Shown here one piece after another: positions 4,418-57,264 of a stretch of DNA of 64,000 nt (positions are counted from its first letter, which is position 1; each line of letters opens with the position of its first letter). The translations under genes were made by a program, and so were the position numbers. The stretch is from Patescibacteria group bacterium (lineage in GTDB: Bacteria; Patescibacteriota; Microgenomatia; UBA8517). The stretch spans positions 131,151 to 195,150 of the forward strand of contig JBGSJG010000001.1 of assembly GCA_041742135.1 (NCBI GenBank), written 5' to 3'. The notes below the pieces were generated by a model. The model searched no databases and was not told the DNA's origin. It worked only from the letters and a program-made list of their open reading frames with translations.

Positions 4418-4783
4418 ATGCCCATTGTATCAGACAAGATAAAATCTAAAGTCAAGCGTAGGAGGGAAAAAAAGATCGCTTACAAAAGCCGCCTGCCTTT
4501 AACTCTGGTTACTGCAGCCATTTGGGGAATACTCATATCAGTTGTGCTTTTTTTAGATCCCTCGCGAAGCTGGGCTCTGGAGATATTTTTGATTAGCTTA
4601 TACTTGTGTTTGCTTTTAACCATTTCACTTTTTACCAAGAAGGTTTGGCAAGGGCTTCTGTGGGCTTCGGCAACTACCTTGTTTCTTGTCTTAAGATACG
4701 TTGGTATTGGAAATCTGTTTAATTTTTTTCTTATCATTGGAGTGGTGTTGGTCGTAGAATTTCGTCTTTTAAAGCGACCTTGA
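4418..4783 (+). CDS. Hypothetical small membrane protein with 3-4 hydrophobic helices. The ORF is questionable: its only Met abuts the rmuC start codon, leaving no room for divergent promoters.
   Basis: ORF-track entry only. Hydrophobic segments are present. There is no intergenic space upstream. Confidence 0.25.
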   Translation: MPIVSDKIKSKVKRRREKKIAYKSRLPLTLVTAAIWGILISVVLFLDPSRSWALEIFLISLYLCLLLTISLFTKKVWQGLLWASATTLFLVLRYVGIGNLFNFFLIIGVVLVVEFRLLKRP

Positions 4784-4825
4784 CTGGCTGTGGTCGTATT
4801 TATATACTGGTTTAGTTGACTAAAC

Positions 4826-5179
4826 ATGCGATCTTCAAATAATAAAATCAACAAATTACTCAAACGGCAAATCGACGATCTGTTTTTAAAGACAATACTG
4901 GATCTTAAAAATCCTGTCGAAACGGAGGATTTTGTTAATGATTTTTTAACTGAGTCGGAGCGAGACGTTTTGGCAAAACGGCTGGGGGTTGCCTATTGGC
5001 TTAAAAAGGGCAGAAGCTACGCTAACATAAAAGAGAACCTCAAGGTAAGTAGTGCAACAATCTCTAGTGTTCAAGGTATTTTAAAGCACAAAGGTGTTGA
5101 AAATGCGCTTAAAAAAATGGAGGCTGAGGAATGGGCTTCCCAGTGGACCGAGAAGATTAAAAAGTTTGTACGTAAATAG
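4826..5179 (+). CDS. TrpR-related YerC/YecD-family small DNA-binding protein
   Basis: About 115 aa with a helix-turn-helix-like segment (…YANIKENLKVSSATISSVQ…) typical of the TrpR-like YerC family. Confidence 0.5.
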   Translation: MRSSNNKINKLLKRQIDDLFLKTILDLKNPVETEDFVNDFLTESERDVLAKRLGVAYWLKKGRSYANIKENLKVSSATISSVQGILKHKGVENALKKMEAEEWASQWTEKIKKFVRK

Positions 5180-5230: not shown

Positions 5231-6622
5231 ATGGCCAATAAATTTTATATAACAACTGCAATTGACTACACAAATGACGTAGTTCATATAGGCCACTCCT
5301 ACCAAAAAATATTGGCGGATGCCCTCGCTCGTTACCATCGTTCTGTTGGCGATAACACCTTTTTTTTGACAGGAACTGATGAACATGGGCAAAAGGTAGA
5401 AAAAAGCGCAAAAGACAAAAATATTGACCCTAAAAAGTTTGTAGACGAGATTGCCAGCAAAGATCGTGAACAATGGGAACAGTTAAACATTTCATTCGAT
5501 AGATTTATAAGAACCACAGACGAAGATCACATAAAAGTAGCTCAGGATTTTTTTTCAAAAGCTAAAGAGAACGGCGATATCTATTTAGACAAATATGAAG
5601 GTCTGTATTGCGAGGGATGTGAGGCATATTATGAAGAAAAAGATCTGATCGACGGGAAATGCCCTTTTCACCCAAACAAGGAAATACAAAAAATTTCCGA
5701 GGAGAATTATTTTTTTAGACTCTCGAAATATCAAGATTTTTTAAAGGACTACATTTCCAAGCACCCAGAGTTTGTCCAGCCTGAGAACCGTCGAAATGAA
5801 ATATTGGCATTTATTAACTCCGGACTTAAAGACTTTTCCGTAAGTCGACAGAATGTCTCTTGGGGTATTCCTGTTCCCGGTGACGATAACCACACAATCT
5901 ATGTGTGGTTTGATGCACTCATTAACTATTACACTTACGGAGAACAAGTTAACGCTTGGCCTGCAGACGTTCATGTACTTGGCAAGGACAATCAACGCTT
6001 CCATGCGATTTATTGGCCTGCGATGCTTCAATCGGTCGGCTTACCACTGCCAAAAACTATATTGGTTCACGATTTTTTTAGTCTCAACGGTCAAAAAATT
6101 AGCAAGTCACTTGGCAATGTAATTCTTCCAAGCGATCTAGTAAAACAATTCGGTACAGACGGTGTGCGATACTTTTTTTTGAGACATGGTCCGATCGTAG
6201 ACGATGTAGACATAACTATTGAAAAAATTGCCGATTCTTATAATGCAGATTTGGCCAATGGATTGGGCAATTTAGTTTCTCGTATTGCGGCATTATGCGA
6301 AAAATCAACATTTACTTTTCCGCTTAAGGAATCTAAAAGCGATCATCACGTAAATCATGCCATGGATCGCTTTCGCCCAGACGAAGCGCTTGAAACAATT
6401 TGGGGACACATAAAACACACTGATCAGTATTTATCTGAAAGTACGCCTTGGAAAAAAGAGGGAGATGAATTGTTTGAAATTCTCTCTACTGTAGTTGACG
6501 AAGTGCGGCTAATCGGCTCACTTCTTGTTCCGTTTCTTCCGACCACTGCCGAAAAAATTCGTCGTCAATTTGACGAAACAAAGATTAAATCACAAGAGCC
6601 ACTTTTCCCCCGTATTACATAA
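5231..6622 (+). CDS. metG: Methionyl-tRNA synthetase (short form)
   Basis: Class I HIGH motif (VHIGHSY), the Cys knuckle CEGCEAYY…CPFH, and KMSKS as KISKSLGN. The MetRS core is recognisable throughout. Confidence 0.9.
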   Translation: MANKFYITTAIDYTNDVVHIGHSYQKILADALARYHRSVGDNTFFLTGTDEHGQKVEKSAKDKNIDPKKFVDEIASKDREQWEQLNISFDRFIRTTDEDHIKVAQDFFSKAKENGDIYLDKYEGLYCEGCEAYYEEKDLIDGKCPFHPNKEIQKISEENYFFRLSKYQDFLKDYISKHPEFVQPENRRNEILAFINSGLKDFSVSRQNVSWGIPVPGDDNHTIYVWFDALINYYTYGEQVNAWPADVHVLGKDNQRFHAIYWPAMLQSVGLPLPKTILVHDFFSLNGQKISKSLGNVILPSDLVKQFGTDGVRYFFLRHGPIVDDVDITIEKIADSYNADLANGLGNLVSRIAALCEKSTFTFPLKESKSDHHVNHAMDRFRPDEALETIWGHIKHTDQYLSESTPWKKEGDELFEILSTVVDEVRLIGSLLVPFLPTTAEKIRRQFDETKIKSQEPLFPRIT

Positions 6623-6623
6623 A

Positions 6624-8114
6624 ATGAAAAAATTCATCCGCAGCCACTACCGCTTTTTCTATAGACTACTAGAAATTCTTCCTGGCCTTTTTTCTTGGAA
6701 CTTGATCCTTTTTCCCTACTGGGGCATTTTTGTAATGCCGAACGCCGTCGCTTATTTCGTACTTTTATTTAACATTTATTGGTTTTACCAATCTTTTCAA
6801 ATCGCAATTAGCGCCACACTGTCGCATTTTAGAATGCAGGCCGCTATGAAATATGATTGGGTGGAGGATCTTAAGAGTTTTCCCGACTGGCAGAAAGTAC
6901 ATCACGTAGTCCTTATTCCAACCTACAAAGAGCCCTTACATGTTCTGGCACGCACCATCGAATCACTGGCAAAACAAACTCTTCCTCTAAAACAAATTAC
7001 TGTAGTTCTGGCCATGGAAGCTCGAGAGCCGGAAAGCGATCGACAAGTAAAAGTAGATGCTCTTAAGAAAAAATATGGAGCAGGTTTTGGGAACTTTTTG
7101 GTCACAGTCCACACGCTAAAACCAGGAGAAATAATTGGCAAATCATCCAACGAACGCCATGCGGCCATTGAGGTCAAAAAACAATTGGTTGACGACGGTG
7201 AGTATGACATAAATTACATGACAGCAACGAGCTGTGATGCTGACCATGTTTATCACCAAAACCACTTTGCATCTCTTACTTTTAAGTTTCTTGATAACCC
7301 CAAACGCTACAATTTCTTCTGGCAACCGGCAGTCATGTTTTACAACAACATTTGGGAGTTGCCCGCCATAACTCGCGTTCCTGCGACGTTAAGCTCTATT
7401 TGGAATTTGTCACAATTGCCTCGCCGAGACAGGCTTATTAACGCACAAAATTATACTTTGTCATATAAATTACTTGATGAAGTTGACTACTGGGACCCTG
7501 ATAAAATTCCTGAAGATTGGGGCATTTTCTTTAAAGCCTTTTATGCCAAAAAGGGTGGAATCGAAGTTGAGCCAATTTATCTGCCTCTTAGTGCTGATGC
7601 TGTGCAGTCTACTACGCTACTTAAAACTCTTAAAAGTCAATATCAGCAACAAAAACGCTGGGCGTGGGGAGTCTCAGACGATCCTTGGATTATCAAAAAT
7701 TATCTTTTTGTGCCCGGAGTGCCTTTTGTCGACAAGACCACTCGTCTTTTCTCGGTAATCTGGCAACATTTTATGTGGCCGGTGAATTGGTTTATTGTCA
7801 CTGTCGGACTAACGCTTCCAACAATCATCAATCCCGCATTTGGCCGCACGACTTTGGGCTACACAGTTCCAAAAATTTCTTCGTTCGTTCTTACTCTAGC
7901 TCTTGCTTTCCTAATAGTAATGCTTGTTTTGGATAGAATTTATAAACCCAAAAGACCCAAGAACTTTCCTCTTTGGCGAGCAATGTTAACTCCTTTTGAG
8001 TTTATCCTCATGCCTTTTGCAGGTTTCGTTTTTGGGGCCCTTCCCGGCCTTGATGCTCACACGCGCCTTATGCTTGGAAAATACATTGAGTACAGAGTAA
8101 CTGAAAAGGTTTAA
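6624..8114 (+). CDS. Processive family-2 glycosyltransferase (cellulose/chitin-synthase-like), membrane-embedded
   Basis: GT2 motifs: VVLIPTYKE, CDADH (DxD) and QQQKRWAWG (QxxRW), with multiple TM helices at both ends. The start is re-set to the ATG at 6624, 2 nt after the metG stop, because the longer 6525 ORF overlaps metG. Confidence 0.75.
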   Translation: MKKFIRSHYRFFYRLLEILPGLFSWNLILFPYWGIFVMPNAVAYFVLLFNIYWFYQSFQIAISATLSHFRMQAAMKYDWVEDLKSFPDWQKVHHVVLIPTYKEPLHVLARTIESLAKQTLPLKQITVVLAMEAREPESDRQVKVDALKKKYGAGFGNFLVTVHTLKPGEIIGKSSNERHAAIEVKKQLVDDGEYDINYMTATSCDADHVYHQNHFASLTFKFLDNPKRYNFFWQPAVMFYNNIWELPAITRVPATLSSIWNLSQLPRRDRLINAQNYTLSYKLLDEVDYWDPDKIPEDWGIFFKAFYAKKGGIEVEPIYLPLSADAVQSTTLLKTLKSQYQQQKRWAWGVSDDPWIIKNYLFVPGVPFVDKTTRLFSVIWQHFMWPVNWFIVTVGLTLPTIINPAFGRTTLGYTVPKISSFVLTLALAFLIVMLVLDRIYKPKRPKNFPLWRAMLTPFEFILMPFAGFVFGALPGLDAHTRLMLGKYIEYRVTEKV

Positions 8115-8122
8115 TTGAATAA

Positions 8123-9655
8123 TTGCTTCAGATGCCGCTATACTTAAAAATAATGCGGCACGCCTTCCACGAACCCAAGTGGCTACAGAAGATCCATGCT
8201 CCTTCGTGGGTGGTTTTAATCCTAGCCATTATTTTTATCTTTCGCATTCCCTCTTTCTTTGAACCTTTTTATTACGGCGATGAGATGATTTACCTGAACC
8301 TTGGCGAAGCTACCAAGCGGGGAATGGTTTTATATCGTGACATTCACGACAACAAGCCTCCGCTTTTATATTTAACCGCGGCTGTTGCTGGAAACGTGTT
8401 TTGGTTTCGAGCAATTTTGGCTGGATGGATGATGCTGACCACAGTTGCTTTTTGGCGACTATGCACGGCTCTATTTATCAAAAATCAATGGATTGTTAAG
8501 TCTTCAGTCGTAGCTTTTGCAATACTCACCACACTACCTCTTTTAGAAGGCCAATGCGCCAACGCAGAGCTATTCATGATTGGCCCGACGATTTTGGCCT
8601 TTTATGTACTTCTGACAAAAAAACTTAACGCAATCAATTTGTTTGCAGCCGGACTGTTGCTGTCCGTAAGCACACTTTTCAAAGTACCTGCAGCTTTTGA
8701 TATTGGAGCAATTATCTTTTTGTGGTTAGTTACTATTAAACTAAGACGCAAAGATCTAACCAACTTCGTGCGCCAGAATTTGCTTTTGGTTGCTGGTTAT
8801 CTACTTCCAATTCTTGTTAGTTTAGTTTGGTACTATTCACGCGGCGCGATCAGCGAGTACCTTATTGCTGCATATTTACAAAATTTCGGTTATTTATCTT
8901 CATGGAGAGCCGGTGGCGCAGCCGAGCCTTTCCTTGTTAAAAACGGCCCACTTCTGCTTCGTGGGGCGGTTTTGCTTGTAGGGCTTGGGGTCATGTGGTT
9001 TTTCAGAAACAAACTTACTCGACAATTTATGTTCGTGGTTGGCTGGTTCTTGTTCGCACTTTTCGCGGCGACTTTGTCTGAAAGACCATATCCTCACTAT
9101 CTGATCCAGGTAGTTCCTGCGGTCAGCATACTTGTGGGCATGCTACTTGCGTCGCGATCGGTTCAACAGTCACTCGTAGTTGTACCGCTGTTTGTGTTAG
9201 TGATAGCCGTAATTCGTTTTCAATTTTGGTATTACCCAAGCGCCCCATATTACGAGAGGTTTGTGTCATACGCGTTAGGGGAGAGCACGCACGAGGAATA
9301 CTTTAACTCTTTTGACGCAGCAACAACTAGAAACTACGAAATCGCTAAGTTTATAGTTACCTCGACTCACGAAGACGACAAGATTTTTGTCTGGGGAGAT
9401 TCACCTACCATCTATGCGCTGTCAAAAAGATTTCCACCACTTAAATATGTTGCCACTTATCATATAAATGATTTTTCCTCGCCCGTAGAAACAATATCAG
9501 CTATCAGCGAAAACAAGCCAAAGTTAATCATTGTTTTGCCCAATTCCCAGTCTTTCCCCGAGCTTGAGGCTTTCATTCGCAATTATTATATTGAAATAGA
9601 AAAAATTGACGGTGCTGGAATATGGATGTTTTCAAATTCGCTGAGCCTCCTTTAA
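8123..9655 (+). CDS. GT-C fold glycosyltransferase (ArnT/PMT family-39-like), polytopic membrane protein
   Basis: At least 10 TM helices. The first extracytoplasmic loop carries YYGDEMIYLNLGE…DNKPPL, a DE-containing loop characteristic of the ArnT/PMT_2 family. Confidence 0.6.
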   Translation: MLQMPLYLKIMRHAFHEPKWLQKIHAPSWVVLILAIIFIFRIPSFFEPFYYGDEMIYLNLGEATKRGMVLYRDIHDNKPPLLYLTAAVAGNVFWFRAILAGWMMLTTVAFWRLCTALFIKNQWIVKSSVVAFAILTTLPLLEGQCANAELFMIGPTILAFYVLLTKKLNAINLFAAGLLLSVSTLFKVPAAFDIGAIIFLWLVTIKLRRKDLTNFVRQNLLLVAGYLLPILVSLVWYYSRGAISEYLIAAYLQNFGYLSSWRAGGAAEPFLVKNGPLLLRGAVLLVGLGVMWFFRNKLTRQFMFVVGWFLFALFAATLSERPYPHYLIQVVPAVSILVGMLLASRSVQQSLVVVPLFVLVIAVIRFQFWYYPSAPYYERFVSYALGESTHEEYFNSFDAATTRNYEIAKFIVTSTHEDDKIFVWGDSPTIYALSKRFPPLKYVATYHINDFSSPVETISAISENKPKLIIVLPNSQSFPELEAFIRNYYIEIEKIDGAGIWMFSNSLSLL

Positions 9656-10069
9656 TTGAATACACCCACAGGCGTAATATACAATAAGCTCGCAATGAAA
9701 AGTTTATCTTTTAAATTTACGGCTTTCGTGGAACTCATACCTGGAAAAAAAATTGGTTTGGGGTTTATTCTTGTAAATGCTCTGGCAATTTTGGTGGTCT
9801 ATATAATGTCTCACTTAATCCTTCCTCCTTCTGTCCCACTTTTCTACGGTAAGCCGTACGGCGCTGAACAATTGGCATCTGCTTTACACTTGGTCATTCC
9901 ACCCTTGGCCGCGATTGTCCTGTCAGCTGTCAACGTTGTAGTTAGTCGAGTTGCAAAGGACGAATTCATAAATAACGTTTTATTTGGAGCGATAGCAGTC
10001 GTCACGCTCCTTTCTTTGATAACCATAGTCAAAATTATCTTTTTAGTCGGAAATATTAATGTTATTTGA
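9656..10069 (+). CDS. Hypothetical small polytopic membrane protein within the glycosylation operon
   Basis: Hydrophobic 137-aa ORF in series with the flanking genes. No recognisable motif. Confidence 0.35.
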   Translation: MNTPTGVIYNKLAMKSLSFKFTAFVELIPGKKIGLGFILVNALAILVVYIMSHLILPPSVPLFYGKPYGAEQLASALHLVIPPLAAIVLSAVNVVVSRVAKDEFINNVLFGAIAVVTLLSLITIVKIIFLVGNINVI

Positions 10070-11129
10070 AAAATTATTCATAGCTCCTGCTATTATCGCA
10101 GGTCTTATCGCCTACTTAGCAACACCACGAGTTATAAAACTCGCCTGGAGATGGGGATTAATTGATGACCCTAAAAAAAACCATCACCCCAAGGTAATCC
10201 ACACCAAGCCAACTCCTCGCGCTGGAGGAATTGCAATCTATGCAGCAATTGTCATAAGTTCGATAGTGCTGTTGCCTTTAGACAAACATCTTGTGGCAAT
10301 ACTTATTGGCGCGACCCTGCTTGTGGTCTTGGGGGTCCTGGACGATAAATACAATCTTAATCCGTACATACGGCTTTTTGTCCAATTTGTAGCCGCGGCC
10401 ATTCCGATCGCTGCGGGGATCGGTATTGCCTATGTTACAAACCCTATAGGTACGGGCTTAATCGATCTTTCGCACCCGCAAATCGTTTTTGAGATTCTTG
10501 GAGAAAGCCGAAGCATTTGGATTCTTTCTGATTTATTTGCAGTTTTTTGGATTGTCACTCTTATTAATTTTTTGAACATGGGCGCCAAAGGGATAGATGG
10601 CCAACTTACCGGGGTAGTAGCTATCGCGGCAATCACAATTGCCATACTGTCTTACAGTTTTTCAGCTGACATCACAGAGTGGCCAGTAACAATTCTCGCC
10701 TCGATTGTCGCCGGAAGTTATCTTGGATTTTTGCCTTGGCATGTATACCCACAAAAAATAATGCCGAGTTTCGCAGGCTCAAACCTGGCCGGCTACTTCT
10801 TGGCAATCCTTTCAATTCTGAGTACAACCAAGGTTGGGGTTTTGGCAATAGTTTTGGCGGTTCCACTGGTGGACACCGGCTACACTATCATAAGAAGAAT
10901 TCTGTCTGGCAAATCTCCAGTTTGGGGGGATAGGGGGCATCTCCATCATCGCCTCCTAGACAGCGGGCTAAGTAAAAACCAAGTTACACTCTTTTACTGG
11001 GGAAGTGCTGCACTATTAGGCATACTTGCTTTGTCATTTAACTCACAATATAAGTTGTATACTATGTTAGGAATTTCTCTAGTTTTGGGAGGTTTTATAT
11101 TATGGCTAACATATCGCTCTCGACATTAA
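10059..11129 (+). CDS. Polyprenyl-phosphate N-acetylhexosamine-1-phosphate transferase (GT4 MraY/WecA/TagO family)
   Basis: Has the DDxxN-like loop (GLIDDPKK), NFLNMGAKGIDG, and the C-terminal VWGDRGHLHHRLL histidine motif typical of WecA/MraY-family enzymes. 10-11 TM helices. Confidence 0.75.
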   Translation: MLFEKLFIAPAIIAGLIAYLATPRVIKLAWRWGLIDDPKKNHHPKVIHTKPTPRAGGIAIYAAIVISSIVLLPLDKHLVAILIGATLLVVLGVLDDKYNLNPYIRLFVQFVAAAIPIAAGIGIAYVTNPIGTGLIDLSHPQIVFEILGESRSIWILSDLFAVFWIVTLINFLNMGAKGIDGQLTGVVAIAAITIAILSYSFSADITEWPVTILASIVAGSYLGFLPWHVYPQKIMPSFAGSNLAGYFLAILSILSTTKVGVLAIVLAVPLVDTGYTIIRRILSGKSPVWGDRGHLHHRLLDSGLSKNQVTLFYWGSAALLGILALSFNSQYKLYTMLGISLVLGGFILWLTYRSRH

Positions 11130-12061
11130 TCGCACTAGTCAAGCTGATGCGCCCAATTCATTGGGTGAAAAATCTGGGTATTTTTGCTGCATTAGTCTTT
11201 TCAGGTGGCCTTTTTGACCAACAAAAAATAATATTACTATTTTTCTCGTTTGGTGCTTTCAGCTTAGCCGCTTCTGCCGCTTACATTTTCAACGACATTT
11301 TGGACGTAAAATCGGACAGGCTTCATCCGATCAAAAAAAACCGACCTATTGCGAGCGGCAAAGTCCCTGTCAATGTTGCGTTACCCGCATCAGTCGTTTT
11401 ATTGTTTGTAGCTTTAGTGTGGGCTGAGTCAATTTCACACATATTTTTCGTTTTACTTTTTGTGTATGTGCTGATTCAAATTGCCTATTCACTAATTCTT
11501 AAGCACATTCACATCCTTGATATTTTAGTAATAGCTTCGGGGTTTGTAATCCGAGTTTACTCAGGAGCGTTTATTATCGATGCTCATTTGTCAGTGTGGT
11601 TTTTGTTATGTGTTGTGTCTGTGGCCTTATTTCTCGCCTCTGGCAAAAGGCGAGCAGAATACGGGGCCATGGGTGCTTCGGGAGGCACAAGAAAAAGCTT
11701 GACTCAATACTCGCGCGAGCTACTAAATTCTTACGTTACGATGTTTGGCAATGCAGCCTGGCTCAGCTGGTCGTTGTTTACTTTTTTTGAAAGCCCAAGA
11801 GTCATTACCCCTTTGTGGGTGTTTCTGGCCGAGTTTTCAAAGACAGCTTCGATAAACAAGCTTCTTATGATTACAATCCCGGTCACCATCTTTGGTATCA
11901 TGCGATACGAATCTTTAATTTTTCAAGAACGATCTGAGTCTCCAGAGAAGCTTCTTTTAACAGATAAGGCATTGGTGGCATCAGTGGTTATCTGGACTGC
12001 TCTTGTGGTTTGGATTCTTTATGGCGGAGTAGCCTCTTATTCGCCATCGCTTACGATTTGA
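11102..12061 (+). CDS. UbiA-family prenyltransferase, subfamily resembling decaprenyl-phosphate 5-phosphoribosyltransferase (DPPR synthase-like)
   Basis: RPIHWVKNLGIFAALVFSG start and NDILDVKSDRLHPIKKNRPIASG (NDxxDxxxD), with about 8 TM helices. It resembles the Rv3806c-type subfamily; this is a by-eye call. Confidence 0.6.
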   Translation: MANISLSTLIALVKLMRPIHWVKNLGIFAALVFSGGLFDQQKIILLFFSFGAFSLAASAAYIFNDILDVKSDRLHPIKKNRPIASGKVPVNVALPASVVLLFVALVWAESISHIFFVLLFVYVLIQIAYSLILKHIHILDILVIASGFVIRVYSGAFIIDAHLSVWFLLCVVSVALFLASGKRRAEYGAMGASGGTRKSLTQYSRELLNSYVTMFGNAAWLSWSLFTFFESPRVITPLWVFLAEFSKTASINKLLMITIPVTIFGIMRYESLIFQERSESPEKLLLTDKALVASVVIWTALVVWILYGGVASYSPSLTI

Positions 12062-12870
12062 GCGTATTGCCCAGAAACCCAGCCGCTGTCCTCACTTGGA
12101 AGTTTTATCCTATACCAATCACCCTCCTGGCTTTGCTCCAGTAACTCGTATGTTTGTTCTGGCAAGACTTGACCTACTTCTGCCGAAGAAGTGCCCGGCT
12201 CGGCTCTTACCCTTAAAAACCCAGTAGGGGTAGAAAGTATCTTTACCTGCTCGACAACCTCAACGGGAGGCTCTTTTTTGTAAGCTAAATCTACAGAGAA
12301 GACCAGTTTGTTTCCTTCTACAGAGTTTACTTTTGTTGTTTCCTCCACGTACCCTTGTTTTTTTACCGCGATTTCATAAATACCCAAAGGCAAGACGGTT
12401 GCCAGGGGAGTGAGGCCTTTAAATTGGTCATCCACAAATACTTCAGATTCAACTGGATCTGAAATTACCACAACTTCTGCGCTACTAGCATTACTTGATT
12501 TTTCAAATGTAATTATTTGAGTCGAGCTATCTCCCTCGCTCTCCCCGAATTTGTGTCGCACAATGGTTTTAATGTTGTCATTTAGTCTCAGCTTAGCAGT
12601 ATAGAAATAGGGGAGAGGCTTAATACTAACCACCCTTATCTCAATCTCACCCGACTCTATTTCAACTTCTAAAGGGGTTTTGCCACTTTCTTTACCATCT
12701 ATATACACATTCGCCTCGATGTTTGACTCCACTACCAAAGCTGATTTGCCTAATGATATAGTTTGATACATATATAGTCCTATAACAATAACGAGCAATA
12801 AAAGCAACATCCCCAGTTTCAGGAGAGGTAGGCGTAGAGCACGAAAAACAAAAGAAGAAAATGACTTCAC
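12037..12870 (-). CDS. Membrane-anchored PEGA-repeat protein with a C-terminal SH3b-like domain
   Basis: N-terminal TM helix. Two PEGA-like repeats (…VYIDGKESGKTPLEV…, …VFVDDQFKGLTPLAT…). The C-terminal segment (…GDWYRIKLPSEDSGWVSGQY…) is a bacterial SH3 signature. Confidence 0.6.
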   Translation of the reverse strand: MKSFSSFVFRALRLPLLKLGMLLLLLVIVIGLYMYQTISLGKSALVVESNIEANVYIDGKESGKTPLEVEIESGEIEIRVVSIKPLPYFYTAKLRLNDNIKTIVRHKFGESEGDSSTQIITFEKSSNASSAEVVVISDPVESEVFVDDQFKGLTPLATVLPLGIYEIAVKKQGYVEETTKVNSVEGNKLVFSVDLAYKKEPPVEVVEQVKILSTPTGFLRVRAEPGTSSAEVGQVLPEQTYELLEQSQEGDWYRIKLPSEDSGWVSGQYAQIVSDGE

Positions 12871-13514: not shown

Positions 13515-13586
13515 GGCCGGATGTCGAAGTGGTAACGAAGCGGTCTGCAAAACCGCCATGCGCGGGTTCGACTCCCGCTCCGGCCT
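13515..13586 (+). tRNA. tRNA-Cys (anticodon GCA)
   Basis: Acceptor stem GGCCGGA/TCCGGCC. Anticodon stem-loop CGGTCTGCAAAACCG with GCA. T-arm CGCGGGTTCGACTCCCGC carries the GTTCGAnTC consensus. Confidence 0.8.
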
Positions 13587-14479
13587 CAGGAGTTTACTTT
13601 TTGCTTTAGGTACTCGACAAACTCACCGTTAACTTGGGGATGACGAAGAGCAAAATCGATGACCGCTTCTAGGTAGCCTACTTTGTTTCCAGTATCGTAA
13701 TACTTCCCGTTTTCAATTACTTGTGCATAAATTGGCACACCATCTTCGCGAAGCAGGTTGATTGCGTCAACCAACCAAATCTCTCCACCTTTTCCGGGCT
13801 TTACGCGTCTTAGGGCATCAAAAATCTCAGGAGGGACGATATAGGCTCCGTGTGTAGCAACATTGGATGGTGCGCTGTCTGGATCCGGCTTTTCTACAAT
13901 TGATTTAATTTTATAAAGATTACCTTCAACCGGCTCCAGATCCGCAATACCGTAACGCTTCAGATGTTCGCGGTTTGTAATCTCCACCCCCGAGATCACT
14001 ACCCCACCGTATTTTTCATAAACTTTAGTCATCTGCGAGAGTCTTGGCGGCTCAGCATATATAAATTCGTCTCCCCACAAAATGGCAAAGGGTTCATTGC
14101 CAACTGCGGGCTCCGCCGAGAGCACAGGTGTCCCGTTACCATATGGGCCTTTTTGGCGAATATAAACAAAATTGGCCAGCTCAGATATTTTTTCAATTTC
14201 TTTGAGAATGTCCTCCTTGCCTCCTGCCAGAAGATTTTTAACAAGCTCTGCGTTAGGAGCGTCAAAATGGTCTTCGATTGCTCGCTTTAGCGCGCCTGTT
14301 ACGATAACCACATCGCGAATGCCGGAAGCAACTGCCTCTTCCACTACATATTGAATAACTGGCTTGTCGACGATCGGGAGCATTTCTTTGGGCATTGCCT
14401 TGGTTTGTGGCAAGAAGCGAGTCCCAAACCCAGCAGCCGGAATCACAGCTTTGGTGATCTTTTTTGTCATGGTATGCAA
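13586..14479 (-). CDS. galU: UTP-glucose-1-phosphate uridylyltransferase
   Basis: KAVIPAAGFGTRFLP…AMPKEMLPIVDKPVIQY N-terminal signature of GalU. The real start may be the second Met (MTKK). Confidence 0.85.
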   Translation of the reverse strand: MHTMTKKITKAVIPAAGFGTRFLPQTKAMPKEMLPIVDKPVIQYVVEEAVASGIRDVVIVTGALKRAIEDHFDAPNAELVKNLLAGGKEDILKEIEKISELANFVYIRQKGPYGNGTPVLSAEPAVGNEPFAILWGDEFIYAEPPRLSQMTKVYEKYGGVVISGVEITNREHLKRYGIADLEPVEGNLYKIKSIVEKPDPDSAPSNVATHGAYIVPPEIFDALRRVKPGKGGEIWLVDAINLLREDGVPIYAQVIENGKYYDTGNKVGYLEAVIDFALRHPQVNGEFVEYLKQKVNS

Positions 14480-19290: not shown

Positions 19291-19968
19291 ATGATAAAAA
19301 TATCAACAGTTCTACCTTTCAGGTACCGACTAGATATACATTTAGTAAAAGCTCGGGGAACTTCTCGTGAACTTCAAAATTTAGTCCCTAGCATCCGAGA
19401 AATTCTCGCAACACGCTCAGGTAACAAAATTTCTAGATTTTTTAGGCACATTTTTGAGCACAAACATGCAAGGCGCATCTTAGGTTCAAACATTGCCCTA
19501 GCCATAATTGCAACCTCATTTATCCCTGGACAAGGAGCGGCTTTTACCGCTGAAGCCGAAGAAACTCTGGTTGGTGCAGACCAGGTGGTTATAGCAACAC
19601 AAGGCGCCGTTCAATTCCCGACTGAAACAATCAAGATTAATCAAAAATTTTCCTTTTATCACCCTGGGCTCGACTTTGACGGCATAACAGGAGACCCTAT
19701 CCGACCAATAATGGCTGGGGAGGTACAGATGATTCAGTATTCGAGCATCGCATACGGTAACGCGGTGTTAATTCGCCACGGAGACAATTTCTCTTCACTT
19801 TACGCTCATTTGTCTAAAATTGAGGTAGTAGAAGGCCAGAAGGTTGACCTTGGTACAATTATTGGCAAAATGGGCTCAACCGGGAGAAGCACTGGGGATC
19901 ATTTGCATTTAGAAGTTCGTGAAAACGGTAGACCAATCAATCCGCTTATCATGCTTCCGAAGATTTAA
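19291..19968 (+). CDS. M23-family (LytM-like) metallopeptidase, membrane-anchored
   Basis: M23 signatures YHPGLDFDG…, MAGEV…, and GSTGRSTGDHLHLEVRENGRPINP (HxH). Hydrophobic anchor near the N-terminus. Confidence 0.8.
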   Translation: MIKISTVLPFRYRLDIHLVKARGTSRELQNLVPSIREILATRSGNKISRFFRHIFEHKHARRILGSNIALAIIATSFIPGQGAAFTAEAEETLVGADQVVIATQGAVQFPTETIKINQKFSFYHPGLDFDGITGDPIRPIMAGEVQMIQYSSIAYGNAVLIRHGDNFSSLYAHLSKIEVVEGQKVDLGTIIGKMGSTGRSTGDHLHLEVRENGRPINPLIMLPKI

Positions 19969-20618
19969 TTTGCTCCTACAATAACCACAATATCGTATTC
20001 ACTGGAAGCCGCAAGCGCACTACCAATTTCGACTGAATAATCACCATCCTCCAGAGCCTTTTTAACTTTGGCAACTACAGCCGCAGAAATACCGGACTTA
20101 GATTGGATAACTGTGTTTTCGTAATCGTATTTACCTGCATTGCCAGTTTTGGTAACGGTAAAACCTGCCTCTTGAAGGACTTCCTCGCCACCACTTGCCG
20201 CTCCAATTGCGCCGCTACCGTTTAATACTTGGACTGAAAGAGTAGATACGTCAATCTCTGGCTCTGGGGTAGCAGAAGGCGTTACAGTTGCCTGTGGAGT
20301 AGCTGTAGCTTCGCTCTGGCCGACTTGCTCATCTGAGGGCGTTGAAATGCCAGACAAATAAACATACACTCCCCCTGAAACCACCGCTGCAACCAAAGCA
20401 CTCACAAGTGTAATAACCACAATCAACTTCAAGTTCATTCGTTTTTCGTTAACTTGTTTAACTTTCGCTGGCTCAGAAGCCACTGTTTCTACTGTTTCTG
20501 TTGCCTCTACCTGAGGCGTTACTTGTGGTTCTTCTGTTGTTTCTACAACTTTTTCAACCGGAGTATCAACTATTTCTTCTATTACAGGTTTGATTCTTTT
20601 CTTGCTTGAATCGGGCAT
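19965..20618 (-). CDS. LytR_C-domain (LytR/CpsA/Psr C-terminal) membrane-anchored protein
   Basis: Acidic N-terminus, one TM, a Thr/Pro-rich linker, then a C-terminal …VQVLNGSGAIGAASGGEEVLQEAGFTV… domain typical of LytR_C. Confidence 0.55.
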   Translation of the reverse strand: MPDSSKKRIKPVIEEIVDTPVEKVVETTEEPQVTPQVEATETVETVASEPAKVKQVNEKRMNLKLIVVITLVSALVAAVVSGGVYVYLSGISTPSDEQVGQSEATATPQATVTPSATPEPEIDVSTLSVQVLNGSGAIGAASGGEEVLQEAGFTVTKTGNAGKYDYENTVIQSKSGISAAVVAKVKKALEDGDYSVEIGSALAASSEYDIVVIVGAN

Positions 20619-30785: not shown

Positions 30786-31460
30786 CTATTCTGCCGCAGG
30801 TTCTTCGGCTGGAGTTTCGCCTTCAGCTGGAGCTTGTGCTTCTCCTTCAGCTGGTACTTCTTCACCTTCTGCAACTTCAGCTGGTGCTTCTACGACGTCT
30901 TCTTTCTGTGGAGGCTCGACTTTCACAACAATCTGCTCGGCGTCTGCCTCAATTTGAACTTTGGTTTTATCATACTTTAAGTCACTTACAAAAATCGCAG
31001 CGTCTACTTCAGTAAGCTCGGTAACATCAACTTCAAACTTTTCAGGCAAATCAGCTGGCAATGCTGTCACATCAACCTCTGAAATCTGTTGTACAACTGT
31101 GCCAATGCCAGATTTTTCAGCAGGAGACTCGCCAACTATTTCAATAGAAACTGTGGCACTAATTTTCTGAGTTAGGTCAATTTGTCTAAAATCTACATGA
31201 AGAACTTTGTCAGTCACCGGGTGGACTTGAACGTTACTTACAAGAACAGGGTTTGTTGACTTACCAACCGTCAAGTCAATAATTCCAGTCTCGCCTGCTT
31301 CTTTATACACTTCCTCGAAAGCCTCGCTTGAAACTTGAATAGCTTGCGACTTAACTCCTTTGCCAAAAACATTGGCTGGAACCAATTTCTCTTGTCTTAA
31401 TTTTTTTACCTTTCGGCCAAGGATCTCTCTTGGGTCTGCAGATAATTTGTGTTTATTCAT
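30786..31460 (-). CDS. rplY: Ribosomal protein L25 / general stress protein Ctc with an acidic C-terminal extension
   Basis: …REILGRKVKKLRQEKLVPANVFGKG…VLHVDFRQIDL… is the L25/Ctc beta-barrel signature. Glu/Ala-rich tail. Confidence 0.8.
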   Translation of the reverse strand: MNKHKLSADPREILGRKVKKLRQEKLVPANVFGKGVKSQAIQVSSEAFEEVYKEAGETGIIDLTVGKSTNPVLVSNVQVHPVTDKVLHVDFRQIDLTQKISATVSIEIVGESPAEKSGIGTVVQQISEVDVTALPADLPEKFEVDVTELTEVDAAIFVSDLKYDKTKVQIEADAEQIVVKVEPPQKEDVVEAPAEVAEGEEVPAEGEAQAPAEGETPAEEPAAE

Positions 31461-33825
31461 TTGTGAAAGTAAGTTCAGAAATAAAATCAGAGCTTAGGTT
31501 CGTATTATAACCAAAGCTACCCTCATCGGTCAAGCCGAAAGGGGGATTTGAACTAAACTGCCGGACATTGGGAGCATCCAGTGTCACACTTAAAGGAAAC
31601 TCTCCTGTTCCCGACTGTTTCCAAAAGTGAAGCTTAAGCTTGTTTGGTTTTTGGTCAAAGGGAACCCTCCAACTATAAGTAAGAGTTTTTGTTTCACCCG
31701 GTAGAACTTCCAAAATTACCCCATATTCGTTTCTGTTTGACAAACGCGTACTGTCAATATCTAGCCACTCGGCCTTACTTCCTGACAGCTGTGCTGTGGG
31801 AAACTGTGCTTCTAAAGGCGCCAAGCCTCGCACGTAGACTTTGTAGCGCTCCTCCGGGATGCGCTCCAGCCCTTCTGAAGTGTTTGTGAGTGTGAGGCTA
31901 AGTGCTTGCTCAATGTATATATCTTTAATTGTGGAGCGAAGCGCAACTTGTCTTTTTACAAAATAATTAGCTTTATTAACGCCAACATTGGCCTCTACAA
32001 CACCTAATGGTAAATACATGCAACCCTCTTCACAATCCTTATTAAAGACTCCCCCATCCCAACCTAAATCTGAAAGTAGCGTGGCAACATCGGTGTTGTG
32101 CAAATACACCTGAATATCCCTCGCATCAACGCTCTTAACTGTCGAGCCCAAAAGATCAATCGTTTTTGTGCTTAAAGACTCGCCCATCTTAAGAATTAAT
32201 GCATCAGACAAAGCGGACAAATACTGAGCTTTTTTTCTCGACCCCGGAAAGAAGTTGTCCTCCACTTCGTACTTAACTTTTTCGTACATATTTTTGCTGT
32301 CTATGGTTTCGCCAAAAGTAGAAAGATAGACCGGGCCCAAAACCTCCAAATAATTTTTGACGCTTTCAAGATTGATGGCAATTACCCCTGCCACGTCTCG
32401 ATCAAGAGTCTTGTCCAAAAACCACTCTGCTCGCTCTGCAGATGTGGGAAAATCCGGATCCCAGTTTGAGTCACGCATTTTCCAGCTTGCCTCACCCAAG
32501 TGCTCGACAATTGGTGCTGGCGGCTCAATATAGCCTTTAAGCTGGCCATCAGCGGAGTAGACGTCATAGACGGTGTCATCGATTAGTTCCCCGCGCGCGA
32601 GTGTGACTAACGCAAACGAACCAATAAAACCTCCTGTAGGTCTAAGTTCCATGTTGTTTTGCAGAAGTAACAAATATGTCTGTGGTGTGTTATAGCCGAG
32701 AAGCTCGGGGAGATTTTTTGTAAACTTGCTCGACAAAAGAACATATTCGCTAAGTTTCGCAACGTCGACTTCAAGCGAAGGGGTGAAGCTTAAAACGTAT
32801 TCAAGATCAGTTCTAAAGACAATCATGTCTTGGTAAAGCGATGCAAGTTTCACAGACAAGTTGTGAGACAGGCCAGCTACACTTGTGGCATCATTGGTTT
32901 GAGCAATATCTTTAGCTAACATCAGCGCGTCGACAGCTTTTTGTAGAACTAGGTTTGCATTTGAAAGTGAGTTGGCGGTATTTCTCGCAGGAAAGCGAAG
33001 CGTGTCCAACACCTTCGCTGTGGGTACCGAAAGTGTACTCGAAGCTTTCAGAAGATTAATTGTCTTTAGATAATTTCCAGTAGTCAAAGATTTATACCCC
33101 CAATAGCTTAAACCCAAGGATGCACCGAGAAGCAAATACGGCATAACAAGTAAGGCCATAACCAGAAGCAGAGCCGAAACGATAGTTTTTTTGGGAAAGC
33201 TAGTTGTTTTAGAAGGTGTCTGTTTTACGGCTAACTGTGCTAGATCAATTTTCGCTTCTTCAACTTGAATGTCTCCTCTTGGCATTCTTGGAGCAAGGCG
33301 TAAATCCACCGAAACGGTTGCGTTTGGGTTTATAAACTTCACATACTCCCCGAACGACACAAGCTTGCCAAAAAGAAAGGATTTATTCTCGGGAAACGAA
33401 AACAGCAAAGCAACTATCTTGGCAAACAGCTCTTCCTGAGTAACCACAGCAAACCAAGCTTCTTTGGGAACCAAAACATGTGGATGCTGCGACTTAGCAT
33501 GCAGATCAGATATTAACTGGGCATGCCCAGGAACGACGTTGTCGACGAATATTTGCTTTGCCAAAACAGACGAAACCAGTCCTTCCCTACTCTTTGATGA
33601 ATTGACCACCACAACTCTGGGTTTTACTTGTTGAATAAAGGACAAAAGATTCCGGTCCGAAACCAACTTTCCATCCAAATCAAGAATTACCAAATACGTA
33701 ACGTTTAGTGGAATACGAGACGGCTTAGAAACTAAACCGGCGGCGCAACCTTTAGTTTTTAAATGCTCAACAAGAGCACTGCCAAGTGTCCGTTCACGAG
33801 AGATCACACATACGATTGGAGACAT
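31453..33825 (-). CDS. Large (790 aa) membrane-anchored hypothetical protein. It recalls the DUF4012-type proteins common in CPR genomes, but the family assignment is unverified.
   Basis: A cytoplasmic N-terminal ~200 aa, a single TM at about 210-235, then a long extracytoplasmic region. No catalytic motif recognised. Confidence 0.45.
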   Translation of the reverse strand: MSPIVCVISRERTLGSALVEHLKTKGCAAGLVSKPSRIPLNVTYLVILDLDGKLVSDRNLLSFIQQVKPRVVVVNSSKSREGLVSSVLAKQIFVDNVVPGHAQLISDLHAKSQHPHVLVPKEAWFAVVTQEELFAKIVALLFSFPENKSFLFGKLVSFGEYVKFINPNATVSVDLRLAPRMPRGDIQVEEAKIDLAQLAVKQTPSKTTSFPKKTIVSALLLVMALLVMPYLLLGASLGLSYWGYKSLTTGNYLKTINLLKASSTLSVPTAKVLDTLRFPARNTANSLSNANLVLQKAVDALMLAKDIAQTNDATSVAGLSHNLSVKLASLYQDMIVFRTDLEYVLSFTPSLEVDVAKLSEYVLLSSKFTKNLPELLGYNTPQTYLLLLQNNMELRPTGGFIGSFALVTLARGELIDDTVYDVYSADGQLKGYIEPPAPIVEHLGEASWKMRDSNWDPDFPTSAERAEWFLDKTLDRDVAGVIAINLESVKNYLEVLGPVYLSTFGETIDSKNMYEKVKYEVEDNFFPGSRKKAQYLSALSDALILKMGESLSTKTIDLLGSTVKSVDARDIQVYLHNTDVATLLSDLGWDGGVFNKDCEEGCMYLPLGVVEANVGVNKANYFVKRQVALRSTIKDIYIEQALSLTLTNTSEGLERIPEERYKVYVRGLAPLEAQFPTAQLSGSKAEWLDIDSTRLSNRNEYGVILEVLPGETKTLTYSWRVPFDQKPNKLKLHFWKQSGTGEFPLSVTLDAPNVRQFSSNPPFGLTDEGSFGYNTNLSSDFISELTFTNE

Positions 33826-57263: not shown

Positions 57264-57264
57264 G

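Follow-up and report, generated by a model that had tools for sequence, protein, structure and literature searches.

Five closely packed membrane-enzyme genes in a stretch of 64 kb from the genome of an ultra-small Patescibacteria bacterium (hereafter the window) look like a kit for adding lipid-carried ribose to an exported surface sugar polymer. In the explanation we favor, to which as a whole we assign a probability of roughly 0.6, Microgenomates-type Patescibacteria have conserved this cluster as an operon for envelope glycans, in which a lipid-linked ribose made by a UbiA-fold enzyme is used by a GT-C glycosyltransferase. An earlier note on this DNA presented such a pathway outside Actinobacteria as the novelty, but in this it had been anticipated: the combination of polyprenyl-phosphate phosphoribosyltransferase (PPPRS) and GT-C in pentofuranosylation outside this phylum has been published (Kelly et al., PNAS, 2024, PMC11127046), and the related DPPRS genes are annotated in several other lineages, among them on plasmids of haloarchaea, Lactococcus, Bacteroidota, Proteobacteria and cyanobacteria. 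What distinguishes the CPR version of this known type of pathway is its conservation through a whole uncultured lineage without several of the usual helper genes. New here are the conserved CPR gene order, the absence of the GT-C from the cluster in about one quarter of species, the fusion of a small membrane protein to the GT4 in some relatives, and a GT4 subfamily without the canonical Mg-binding Asp.

Gene order and its conservation

All five genes that the earlier note had placed in series on one strand were found at positions 6624-12061 (Table 1), encoding, in this order, a GT2 with the motif QQKRW, an ArnT-like GT-C, a small protein with three transmembrane (TM) helices, a GT4 of the MraY/WecA superfamily and the UbiA-fold enzyme. 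Gene spacing in the cluster is +1, +8, 0/+39, -11 and -28 nt, the last value being the overlap of the 5' end of the UbiA gene with the GT4 gene, and no convincing internal terminator was found within the five genes. The identical gene order occurs in 80 species-representative genomes, with UbiA identities down to ~40%, and the arrangement is therefore not due to chance. The 84 loci compared span at least eight candidate phyla, the nearest named relatives being Woesebacteria; the small-GT4-UbiA unit is found in 80 of these loci, the GT2 in 72 and the GT-C family of the 8123-9655 protein in 59. A gene for a PEGA protein, convergent with the UbiA gene and overlapping it by 25 nt, is the next gene downstream of UbiA in 73/84 loci and a syntenic companion of the cluster. 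The order GT2-(GT-C)-small-GT4-UbiA-PEGA is kept across Microgenomates-type CPR, which is a new point.

Table 1. Predicted products of the five-gene cluster and its convergent neighbor (positions within the window).
Product	Coordinates	Strand	Length	Basis
Membrane-integrated processive GT2 (hyaluronan/cellulose-synthase-like)	6624..8114	+	496 aa	Pfam Glyco_trans_2_3 3.8e-8
GT-C-fold glycosyltransferase (ArnT/PMT-like)	8123..9655	+		AlphaFold model and Foldseek; Pfam families of homologs
Small membrane protein, 3 TM helices	9695..10069	+	124 aa	ATG 9695; ORF opens at TTG 9656
Polyprenyl-phosphate N-acetylhexosamine-1-phosphate transferase superfamily (MraY/WecA, Pfam Glycos_transf_4), atypical active site	10059..11129	+		PF00953 4e-22
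UbiA-fold polyprenyl-phosphate 5-phosphoribosyltransferase (DPPRS/PPPRS-like)	11102..12061	+	319 aa	PF01040 7e-23; NCBIfam; Rv3806c
Membrane-anchored PEGA + SH3_3 surface protein	12037..12870	-		PEGA 8e-19; SH3_3 8e-12

The UbiA-fold enzyme and its donor sugar

Sequence comparison indicates that the UbiA-fold enzyme is a member of the DPPRS/PPPRS clade, as the earlier note had proposed from its N-terminus and its NDxxDxxxD motif (NDILDVKSD, aa 64-72). The protein clears the cutoff of one of three NCBIfam DPPRS models, by a margin of 2 bits (NF008978, 209.3 bits against 207; NF008977 gives 214.7 bits against a cutoff of 234). In a PDB sequence search the sole strong solved relative was Rv3806c (8j8j, E=2.2e-35; 221-226 residues aligned, 37-38% of them identical); DGGGP synthase came second, at 6e-5. 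The twelve donor/acceptor contact residues taken from the cryo-EM paper on Rv3806c (PMC10994848) are all conserved: R17, K23, Y61, N64, D68 and K78 of the CPR protein correspond to R22, K28, Y70, N73, D77 and K87 of Rv3806c, and R81, Q126, Y129, K134, F148 and K198 to R90, Q135, Y138, K143, Y157 and K208. Among 120 homologs, 119-120 agree on the residue at eleven of these positions, and 98 keep K208. Ordinary UbiA enzymes, according to that paper, do not keep the phosphoribose-specific K28, Y70, Q135 and Y157 of Rv3806c (PMC10994848). Conversely, an HMM of CPR UbiA proteins gave annotated DPPRSs of six other lineages 171-247 bits, against 26 bits for E. coli UbiA, 18 for CyoE and no hit on MenA. 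Close Woesebacteria homologs are already named DPPRS by NCBI.

The protein also matches the generic Pfam UbiA model, and JGI pipelines label many of its homologs '4-hydroxybenzoate polyprenyltransferase', as would suit an ordinary aromatic or lipid prenyltransferase (MenA, UbiA, heme O synthase or DGGGP synthase type) with no role in sugar-donor synthesis. However, models of quinone, heme, chlorophyll and archaeal-lipid prenyltransferases reach at most 51 bits, versus 209-215 bits for DPPRS; identity is 16-20% to E. coli UbiA, MenA and CyoE, versus 33-38% to DPPRSs; and the positively charged K/R pyrophosphate site is present together with the Rv3806c phosphoribose contacts. In a tree, the comparison by which the earlier note proposed to tell the two apart, the protein falls inside the DPPRS clade and apart from the three E. 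coli enzymes in 60/60 bootstraps. Scores, identities, tree and contact residues effectively refute an ordinary prenyltransferase identity.

In the mechanism that we propose, the UbiA-fold enzyme would move ribose-5-phosphate from PRPP onto polyprenyl phosphate at the cytoplasmic face, forming polyprenyl-phospho-beta-D-ribofuranose-5-phosphate. We infer that the 5-phosphate is then taken off by an enzyme encoded outside the cluster, that some carrier flips the lipid-linked pentose across the membrane, and that an extracytoplasmic GT-C, here the ArnT-like 8123-9655 protein, hands it to an acceptor. The most plausible acceptor would be either a polymer made and exported by the HAS/BcsA-like GT2 or a glycan that the PNPT-family GT4 starts on polyprenyl phosphate; the 3-TM protein would act together with this GT4.

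The earlier note had also reported that the window has no DprE1/E2-like epimerases and no Rv3807c-like phosphatase, rightly so: Pfam searches of all ORFs of 150 aa or more detected no DprE1, DprE2 or PAP2 partner in the window (64 kb of a contig of ~205 kb), where tblastn with DprE1-like, DprE2-like, PAP2, HAD, PHP, EamA and GtrA queries found nothing either. Neither the window nor the genes flanking the cluster in 80 related Patescibacteria species include a 5-phosphatase, a DprE1/E2-like epimerase or a known flippase. Two steps of the proposed mechanism are thus without a candidate gene; a phosphatase is adjacent or fused to DPPRS in 5 of the 6 non-CPR contexts examined. The lack of these partners in the window and the related loci makes a ribose-type donor plausible, and since no epimerase is linked, the sugar would most likely remain ribofuranose. 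PPPRS, flippase and GT-C have been shown biochemically to add alpha-ribofuranose if there is no epimerase (PMC11127046).

It is quite improbable, in our view, that the cluster serves a pathway of the mycobacterial or Citrobacter O2 kind for D-arabinofuranose (or xylofuranose), with epimerase(s) and phosphatase encoded elsewhere in the genome. The extent of the contig beyond the window leaves space for such genes, a full DPPRS-DprE1-DprE2-GT39 set occurs outside Actinobacteria in Chondrinema (Bacteroidota), and ~10 Woesebacteria loci contain an extended-SDR gene inside the cluster. That SDR, however, falls under the Pfam families for NAD-dependent epimerase/dehydratase and GDP-mannose-dehydratase, carries by eye the signature of UDP-glucuronate decarboxylases (nucleotide-sugar enzymes) and has no counterpart in the window, and no FAD-oxidase/SDR pair is found in the window or, in any of the 80 species, up to 10 kb away from the UbiA gene.

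The GT-C protein and the other cluster members

The GT-C fold suggested for the 8123-9655 protein in the earlier note is confirmed at the level of its AlphaFold model (pLDDT 88.4, pTM 0.87), with ~11 TM helices followed by a C-terminal alpha/beta domain (aa ~374-510); translation likely starts at ATG 8132 (507 aa). Foldseek against the PDB places ArnT at the top (5f15, E=7.8e-7, TM 0.53; also 5ezm); the GT-C enzymes ranked after it are AftD, GPI-mannosyltransferase I, Pmt1 and AftB, and a GPI-transamidase chain likewise stands high in the list. The protein itself has no Pfam, NCBIfam or PDB sequence match, and at sequence level its family cannot be related to E. coli ArnT; homologs bear PF27757 and/or PF13231 PMT_2. 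Two stretches do not vary among 38 sequences: Y51-G52-D53-E54, which immediately follows TM1 and contains the acidic GDE, and D76-N77-K78-P79-P80.

The pairing of UbiA and GT-C that the earlier note emphasized is frequent but not obligate, as about one quarter of related species keep GT2-small-GT4-UbiA with no GT-C in the cluster (22-25 of 84 loci are without this GT-C and retain small-GT4-UbiA), which makes the link associative. The enzymes may therefore be as described and the GT-C still not consume the UbiA product: its donor could be a different lipid-linked sugar (as for a PMT/ArnT-like modifier of proteins or glycans, for instance), with the polyprenyl-phospho-ribose going to a GT-C encoded elsewhere or to another fate. 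This would accord with the extra PMT and PMT_2 GT-Cs that adjoin UbiA in other CPR loci, which also count toward a linkage of UbiA with GT-Cs, and with PF27757 being named for a streptococcal protein of unknown function. We nevertheless consider it unlikely, since the cluster holds no GtrB/DPM1-type polyprenyl-phospho-hexose synthase for an alternative donor, the GT-C gene, where present, sits between the GT2 and small-protein genes with gaps of 0-10 nt, and in Haloterrigena and Chondrinema DPPRS adjoins genes annotated as GT-C (GT39), its neighbors in the remaining non-CPR contexts being large membrane proteins without annotation.

The assignment of the first gene to a processive GT2 was borne out by motifs and fold. 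The 496-aa form from ATG 6624 is common to more than 100 homologs and has two TM helices at its N-terminus and about four at its C-terminus, with invariant D205xD207 (DAD), E297-D298 and Q342xxR345W346 (aa 342-346); the full motif set is D, DxD, ED and QxxRW. Its AlphaFold model (pLDDT 67.8) is good in the GT-A core and weak in the C-terminal helices, and best matches Chlorella virus HAS (7sp7, E=1e-8), BcsA (4hg6/5ej1) and Xenopus HAS1.

For the GT4, described earlier as a WecA-like initiating enzyme, membership of the PNPT superfamily stands, but the active site is non-canonical. NCBIfam scores are 101 bits for WecA (TIGR02380, cutoff 326) and 46 for MraY. The DD pair (WecA D90/D91), D159, R265 and HLHH are kept; K stands in place of WecA D156 and F in place of the 'FMGD' Asp (WecA D217/MraY), a loss confirmed by pairwise HMMER alignments with two MraY structures. 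This last position is Y/F in 81 of 82 CPR orthologs, and the change is common to the ~38 nearest GT4 representatives, more distant ones having D/E. As judged from these alignments, the protein represents a GT4 subfamily without the canonical Mg-binding Asp, a new point that makes it uncertain whether it acts as a normal initiating transferase.

The small protein is probably a partner or subunit of this GT4: of the 150 nearest GT4 cluster representatives, 20 carry it fused at the N-terminus. Its gene lies directly upstream of the GT4 gene in 80/84 loci. In agreement with the earlier description, three hydrophobic helices were read by eye from the alignment, which has the motif LPPxxPLFYxLPxGExQL, and no Pfam family matched; comparison with ArnE, EamA and GtrA revealed no similarity.

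Related systems

The closest parallel is ORF15-ORF14-ORF12 of Citrobacter youngae O1/O2 (PMC11127046), where a UbiA-fold, PRPP-dependent polyprenyl-phosphoribose synthase is linked to a GT-C in a polysaccharide locus and ribofuranose is added without an epimerase; the NDxxDxxxD residues essential in that three-component system are also found in the CPR UbiA. Differently from Citrobacter, the CPR cluster has no fused HAD phosphoribose-phosphatase domain or separate phosphatase and no MATE flippase. Going by the description of ORF12, the CPR GT-C belongs to another sequence family (PF27757/PMT_2-like, with an ArnT-like fold) and lacks the C-terminal beta-rich CBM. The backbone machinery consists of a HAS/BcsA-like synthase and an atypical PNPT instead of an ABC-transporter pathway, and the cluster is a lineage-wide core of monoderm-type hosts, whereas the Citrobacter version is a serotype-variable add-on.

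The mycobacterial decaprenyl-phospho-arabinose pathway (Rv3806c, Rv3807c, DprE1/DprE2, Emb/Aft) shares a homologous first enzyme and the logic of a lipid-linked pentose donor for GT-C, beside a WecA-type enzyme and a GT2. Unlike this pathway, the CPR cluster has neither PAP2 phosphatase nor DprE1/DprE2, its GT-C is closer to ArnT than to AftD, AftB or EmbB, and the actinobacterial order glf-GT-PAP2-DPPRS-ZomB is not seen. In annotated non-actinobacterial loci (Lactococcus pLLF27D, Haloterrigena, Marivivens, Vibrio, Chondrinema), DPPRS homologs at 33-38% identity likewise lie in surface-polysaccharide loci, often adjoining GT39/GT-C genes or large unannotated membrane proteins. Those loci, unlike the CPR cluster, have phosphatases (HAD-IB, PHP, divergent PAP2 or a HAD::UbiA fusion), small flippases (GtrA or EamA) and epimerases (a FAD oxidase and SDR pair or NAD-epimerase) beside DPPRS.

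In the ArnC/ArnEF/ArnT and GtrA/GtrB/GtrC systems, polyprenyl phosphate is loaded with a sugar in the cytoplasm, the lipid-linked sugar is flipped, and a GT-C transfers it on the outer side (summarised in PMC11127046). The donor synthase there is a GT2 using a UDP-sugar and not a UbiA-fold PRPP enzyme, and the CPR cluster has no SMR/GtrA flippase and no sequence similarity to E. coli ArnT or ArnE, but the general scheme is alike, and in structure the CPR GT-C matches ArnT best.

The UbiA-fold enzyme and its neighborhood

We read the five-gene cluster at 6624-12061 as a pathway in which a lipid-linked ribofuranose would be made, used by a GT-C-fold transferase and attached as a decoration to a polymer from the neighboring GT2/GT4 machinery, and we give this model as a whole a probability of roughly 0.6. 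The last gene encodes a UbiA-fold protein of 319 aa, carrying no extra domain detectable by Pfam or NCBIfam, that the earlier note had likened to decaprenyl-phosphate 5-phosphoribosyltransferases (DPPRS; more generally polyprenyl-phosphate 5-phosphoribosyltransferases, PPPRS). Its score marginally passes the curated cutoff of the NCBIfam DPPRS model NF008978 (209.3 bits vs. 207) and lies under those of the DPPRS models NF008977 (214.7 vs. 234) and NF008976 (156.9 vs. 474); models of heme O synthase, UbiA, MenA-type enzymes, chlorophyll synthase and archaeal GGGP/DGGGP synthases give at most 51 bits. PRK08238, presumably representing phosphatase-UbiA fusions like that of Vibrio, reaches 164.6 bits over model positions 191-405 of 482. 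When all PDB sequences were searched, Rv3806c (8j8j, E=2.2e-35) was the sole strong match, the second being a DGGGP synthase at only 6e-5.

The residues of Rv3806c that contact Mg, the pyrophosphate of PRPP, the ribose and the 5-phosphate have been named from its cryo-EM structure, and the phosphoribose contacts are not conserved by ordinary UbiA enzymes (PMC10994848). All 12 contact residues are conserved in the protein studied here, Y157 being present as Phe, as it is in some mycobacteria (PMC10994848). The Mg/pyrophosphate site (Rv3806c N73, D77, R22, K87, R90, K143 and K208) corresponds to N64, D68, R17, K78, R81, K134 and K198, and the phosphoribose contacts (K28, Y70, Q135 and Y157) to K23, Y61, Q126 and F148. 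At 11 of the 12 positions a single residue is held by 119-120 of the 120 closest homologs, and the K208 equivalent is retained in 98 of them; the other six residues of the Mg/pyrophosphate site are identical in all 120. An HMM of the CPR (Patescibacteria) proteins gives 171-247 bits on DPPRS-annotated proteins of Haloterrigena, Marivivens, Rhodococcus, Chondrinema, Lactococcus and Vibrio, 26 bits on E. coli UbiA, 18 on CyoE and no match on MenA. The phylogenetic placement proposed as a check gave the same grouping: in a neighbour-joining tree drawn without an archaeal DGGGP synthase, the protein and 12 CPR representatives cluster with DPPRSs, apart from E. coli UbiA, MenA and CyoE, in 60 of 60 bootstraps. 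The DPPR-synthase-like identity is therefore well supported, and the protein very probably has PPPRS activity. A role as a generic prenyltransferase is essentially excluded.

The five genes follow metG (see the table) at spacings of +1, +8, 0/+39, -11 and -28 nt, and no convincing terminator was found within the cluster; the most promoter-like sequences are found ahead of a TrpR-like gene, at ~4780-4843. The GC content of the window is ~0.43, and the nearest named relatives are Candidatus Woesebacteria. A conservation scan with the UbiA alignment, taking one genome per species, returned at least 588 relatives, of which the best 80 are all Patescibacteria; these cover Woese-, Ames-, Collier-, Levy-, Davies-, Gottesman-, Shapiro- and Cerribacteria, and also hold one bin labelled Saccharimonadales and one labelled Paceibacterota. 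Counting these best 80 together with four loci fetched earlier, the GT4 gene lies directly upstream of the UbiA gene in 82/84 loci, the triad of small protein, GT4 and UbiA is present in 80/84, the convergent PEGA/SH3 gene in 73/84, the GT2 gene in 72/84 and the GT-C family of the window in 59/84. In Davies-/Collierbacteria-type loci the small gene directly follows GT2 and the cluster has no GT-C, and in a few species a PMT-type GT-C directly follows UbiA. The gene order therefore represents an ancient core shared by the whole lineage, in which the GT-C complement varies. The cluster is kept in genomes of 0.7-1.3 Mb from at least eight candidate phyla, and the identities among the closest 120 relatives are unusually high (72-85% for GT2, 61-85% for UbiA), which together suggests that a core wall or surface polymer bears a lipid-donated pentofuranose. 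To our knowledge, there is almost no experimental knowledge of the envelope of Microgenomates-type CPR, none of which has been cultured.

Coordinates of the cluster and of other features in the window
Feature	Position	Strand	Remark
metG	5231-6622		directly precedes the cluster
GT2	6624-8114	+	496 aa from ATG 6624
GT-C	8123-9655	+	510 aa
Small membrane protein	9695-10069	+	TTG-initiated frame open at 9656
GT4	10059-11129	+	
UbiA-fold enzyme	11102-12061	+	319 aa
PEGA+SH3 gene	12037-12870	-	converges on the UbiA gene, overlapping its end
Sugar-1-phosphate nucleotidyltransferase	13586-14479	-	NTP_transferase, 2e-27
M23 peptidase	19291-19968		
LytR_C-domain protein	19965-20618	-	LytR_C domain alone
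DUF4012 protein	31453-33825	-	790 aa
Wzy_C/O-antigen-ligase-like membrane protein	34388-35569	-	
dnaA	37716-39095		
dnaN	39252-40349		
TraG/VirB4-like P-loop ATPase	42374-44287	-	T4SS-like set
PrgI-like protein	45011-46027	-	T4SS-like set
Large ORFs (1094, 810, 544, 501 and 509 aa)	46136-53585, 54766-56271, 58689-60218		no Pfam match
Class I methyltransferase	54032-54775		
T4SS_pilin-domain proteins (two)	60220-60990, 61010-61918	-	T4SS-like set

Glycosyltransferases and the small membrane protein

The GT2 protein belongs to the Pfam family Glyco_trans_2_3 and had been described as processive. This description agrees with its D, DxD, ED and QxxRW motifs, among which D205xD207, E297-D298 and Q342-x-x-R345-W346 are invariant, and with the best fold matches of its AlphaFold model, namely hyaluronan synthases and BcsA; the model is moderately confident, with a good GT-A core and poor C-terminal helices, so that its transmembrane part is of low confidence. 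Searching PDB sequences with a profile of the family gave no more than marginal TarS-like matches. Motifs and modelled fold point to a membrane-integrated processive synthase, and the protein probably builds its polymer and exports it as well. The start of the public gene call (P0241, 459 aa) is probably mis-called, as it lies later than that of the 496-aa form common to more than 100 homologs (window 6525-6735). Another gene, 1.5 kb downstream, encodes a sugar-1-phosphate nucleotidyltransferase and keeps its synteny with the cluster in several Woesebacteria loci; its product may supply an NDP-sugar to the GT2/GT4 enzymes.

The GT-C protein gave no match with its own sequence in Pfam, NCBIfam or PDB sequence searches, and its fold was thus established by modelling. 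More than 2000 homologs exist, some of which bear PF27757 ('Competence-induced_Ccs4_N') or PMT_2. The confident AlphaFold model (pLDDT 88.4, pTM 0.87, 38 sequences) has ArnT as its top Foldseek match in the PDB (5f15, E=7.8e-7, TM 0.53), with AftD, GPI mannosyltransferase I, Pmt1 and AftB lower in the list and a GPI-transamidase chain also ranking high. The earlier assignment as ArnT/PMT-like was in this way borne out at the level of the fold, with no sequence relation to E. coli ArnT, the profile of the family giving no signal when aligned with it (hhalign). In GT-C enzymes, catalytic acidic residues are placed just after TM1, and in this alignment Y51-G52-D53-E54 directly after TM1 is invariant; by analogy, G52-D53-E54 may be the catalytic motif. 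That the enzyme uses a donor other than the lipid-linked pentose is one of the main rival readings, and we consider it rather unlikely. In the Woesebacteria loci L002 (4735-7079) and L018 (3406-4350) and in about ten others, a variable insert between GT2 and GT-C encodes an extended-SDR (Epimerase/GDP_Man_Dehyd) and a second GT-C (PMT_2, ~446 aa), which suggests a lineage-specific elaboration of the glycan.

The GT4 protein had been considered a WecA-like initiating enzyme. Its superfamily stands (PF00953, 4e-22, 79.3 bits vs. a cutoff of 27), but it represents a subfamily of its own whose active site is non-canonical. On the WecA model TIGR02380 it scores 101.3 bits, far under the cutoff of 326; WecA is nonetheless the nearer of the two, with MraY at 46 bits. 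An alignment of E. coli WecA and MraY with 82 orthologs from CPR showed that these retain the DD pair, D159, R265 and HxHH, with D95-D96 and H-L-H-H conserved in 81 of the 82. Lys, Ser or Thr takes the place of WecA D156 (NxxNxxDGIDGL). The Asp of 'FMGD', which we take to be the Mg-binding residue equivalent to WecA D217 and E. coli MraY D267, is Phe in the window and Tyr/Phe in 81/82 orthologs, and in independent HMMER alignments the 'GD' of two MraY structures falls opposite 'SF' in the window protein. We know of no characterised PNPT in which this Asp varies. Among relatives sought in 1.84 billion cluster representatives, Tyr/Phe at this position is common to the ~38 nearest, with Asp/Glu in more distant ones. 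One possibility is that the Lys would stand in for the metal.

The small protein (~124 aa) carries the motif LPPxxPLFYxLPxGExQL and has three hydrophobic helices. It matches no Pfam family and is not similar to the flippases ArnE, EamA and GtrA, a profile comparison with ArnE (hhalign) also giving no signal. Of the 150 nearest GT4 representatives, 20 are fusions with the small protein at the N-terminus; because of them, we consider it a partner of GT4 rather than a lipid-sugar flippase.

The GT4 and UbiA genes are strictly coupled in translation, and the product of the former is also the partner of the small protein, or fused with it. It is conceivable, if highly improbable, that the 5-phosphate is retained and that polyprenyl-phospho-ribose-5-phosphate is the working intermediate, phosphoribose being handled by the atypical GT4 or by the GT-C to give an anionic wall polymer. 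The Asp-less GT4 might then act on or with the intermediate, for example with the ribose 5-phosphate as phosphate acceptor; alternatively, the GT-C might transfer phosphoribose. Such retention would imply an anionic phosphoribosyl, teichoic-acid-like wall polymer made by a previously unknown route.

Accessory functions and comparison with known systems

It has been shown biochemically for Citrobacter O antigens that a UbiA-fold synthase, dependent on PRPP, loads ribose onto polyprenyl phosphate, that a flippase exports the product and that a GT-C adds the pentofuranose outside; where an epimerase is absent, the product is ribose, and a Pseudomonas pilin arabinosylation system is cited in the same work (PMC11127046). 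We looked for accessory functions of the ribofuranose pathway proposed here. By Pfam, no FAD oxidase, DprE2-like SDR or PAP2/HAD/PHP phosphatase was found among all window ORFs of at least 150 aa. The real accessory proteins of annotated non-CPR DPPRS loci were also used as queries, the loci being those of Lactococcus (hypothetical 533-aa protein - DPPRS - HAD - GtrA), Haloterrigena (GT39 - DolP-Man transferase - NAD-epimerase - DPPRS - PHP), Marivivens (EamA - Leloir GT - DPPRS - PAP2), Vibrio (HAD::UbiA - EamA), Rhodococcus (glf - GT - PAP2 - DPPRS - ZomB) and Chondrinema (GT39 - hypothetical - DPPRS - FAD oxidase - SDR - acyltransferase - GT39). They gave zero matches in the 64-kb window, and beside the cluster in 80 CPR loci none but the Woesebacteria SDR and a single PAP2-like ORF, 5 kb from the cluster in one locus. 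Differently from the mycobacterial DPA (arabinofuranose) pathway, the window has no pair of DprE1 (FAD oxidase) and DprE2 (SDR), nor do 80 species have one at a distance of up to 10 kb from UbiA. The absence of such partners from the window, as first noted, thus extends to the other CPR loci, and it strengthens the accompanying point that the donor may remain a ribose-type sugar. Epimerases encoded elsewhere would lead instead to an arabinose or xylose pathway, which we regard as unlikely, with the search covering the window and the surroundings of the cluster in 80 species. No MATE, SMR/EamA or GtrA flippase is encoded in the cluster, where the small protein is the only small membrane protein.

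Two further candidates were rejected. The extended-SDR of ~10 Woesebacteria loci, considered as a general lipid-pentose epimerase, matches nucleotide-sugar epimerase/dehydratase families, is UDP-glucuronate decarboxylase-like by eye and is absent from the window. A recurrent gene of ~273 aa between metG and GT2 in non-Woesebacteria loci, considered as a phosphatase, appears by eye to encode a TatD-type hydrolase with an N-terminal HxH, and is likewise absent from the window.

Compared with the three-component system of Citrobacter (Kelly et al., 2024), the CPR cluster likewise links a GT-C-fold transferase to the synthase (in the window and in 59/84 loci), but has neither a linked phosphatase, be it a fused HAD PRP or a separate protein, nor a dedicated flippase. 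Its GT-C family apparently differs from that of the known system. The CPR version is further distinguished by an associated HAS-like synthase, by a PNPT that lacks the Asp and has a small partner of its own, and by being a conserved core, in contrast to a variable serotype module. The 'glycosyltransferase family 4' gene beside the Marivivens DPPRS encodes a Leloir enzyme (Glycos_transf_1) and not a PNPT, and is therefore no parallel to the CPR GT4-UbiA pair.

DPPRS-annotated genes are borne by plasmids of many phyla, one phage record holds a homolog, and close Woesebacteria and Patescibacteria homologs carry the public NCBI name 'decaprenyl-phosphate phosphoribosyltransferase'. Given also the Citrobacter precedent, occurrence outside Actinobacteria, which had been pointed out at first, is therefore not novel. 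Among the results listed, our literature searches found no publication tying DPPRS or the decaprenyl pathway to CPR/Patescibacteria. The cluster does not overturn current understanding; it would extend the pentofuranosylation paradigm of 2024 to a deep-branching uncultured lineage and offers a concrete hypothesis for heterologous testing. Two oddities are of biochemical note: the PNPT subfamily lacks the canonical metal-binding Asp, and neither a phosphatase nor a flippase is linked to the pathway. Separately, the dairy Lactococcus plasmid pLLF27D (fetched locus L086) carries at 5374-8706, within a polysaccharide locus that also encodes an LCP ligase, a compact set of genes for the 533-aa hypothetical membrane protein, DPPRS, HAD-IB phosphatase and GtrA, which looks like a ready-made Gram-positive pentofuranosylation module.

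Other features of the window

The dnaA and dnaN genes coincide with the minimum of the cumulative GC skew (~36-38 kb), and the window probably spans the replication origin. Further along lies a T4SS-like gene set (table), reminiscent of the T4SS that a preprint describes for Patescibacteria (bioRxiv 10.1101/2025.01.22.634366), and the five large ORFs are interleaved with these genes. Between 54000 and 58700 the GC content falls to ~0.39, vs. 0.43-0.47 in the flanks; this stretch, which holds a class I methyltransferase gene and no ORF of at least 150 aa at 56271-58689, may be acquired or non-coding DNA. A second envelope-glycan patch occupies 31453-35569 on the minus strand, where the Wzy_C-type and DUF4012 proteins are encoded. 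Finally, the M23 peptidase gene adjoins that of the LytR_C-domain protein, and in a related contig (L004) the two are again found together near the cluster.
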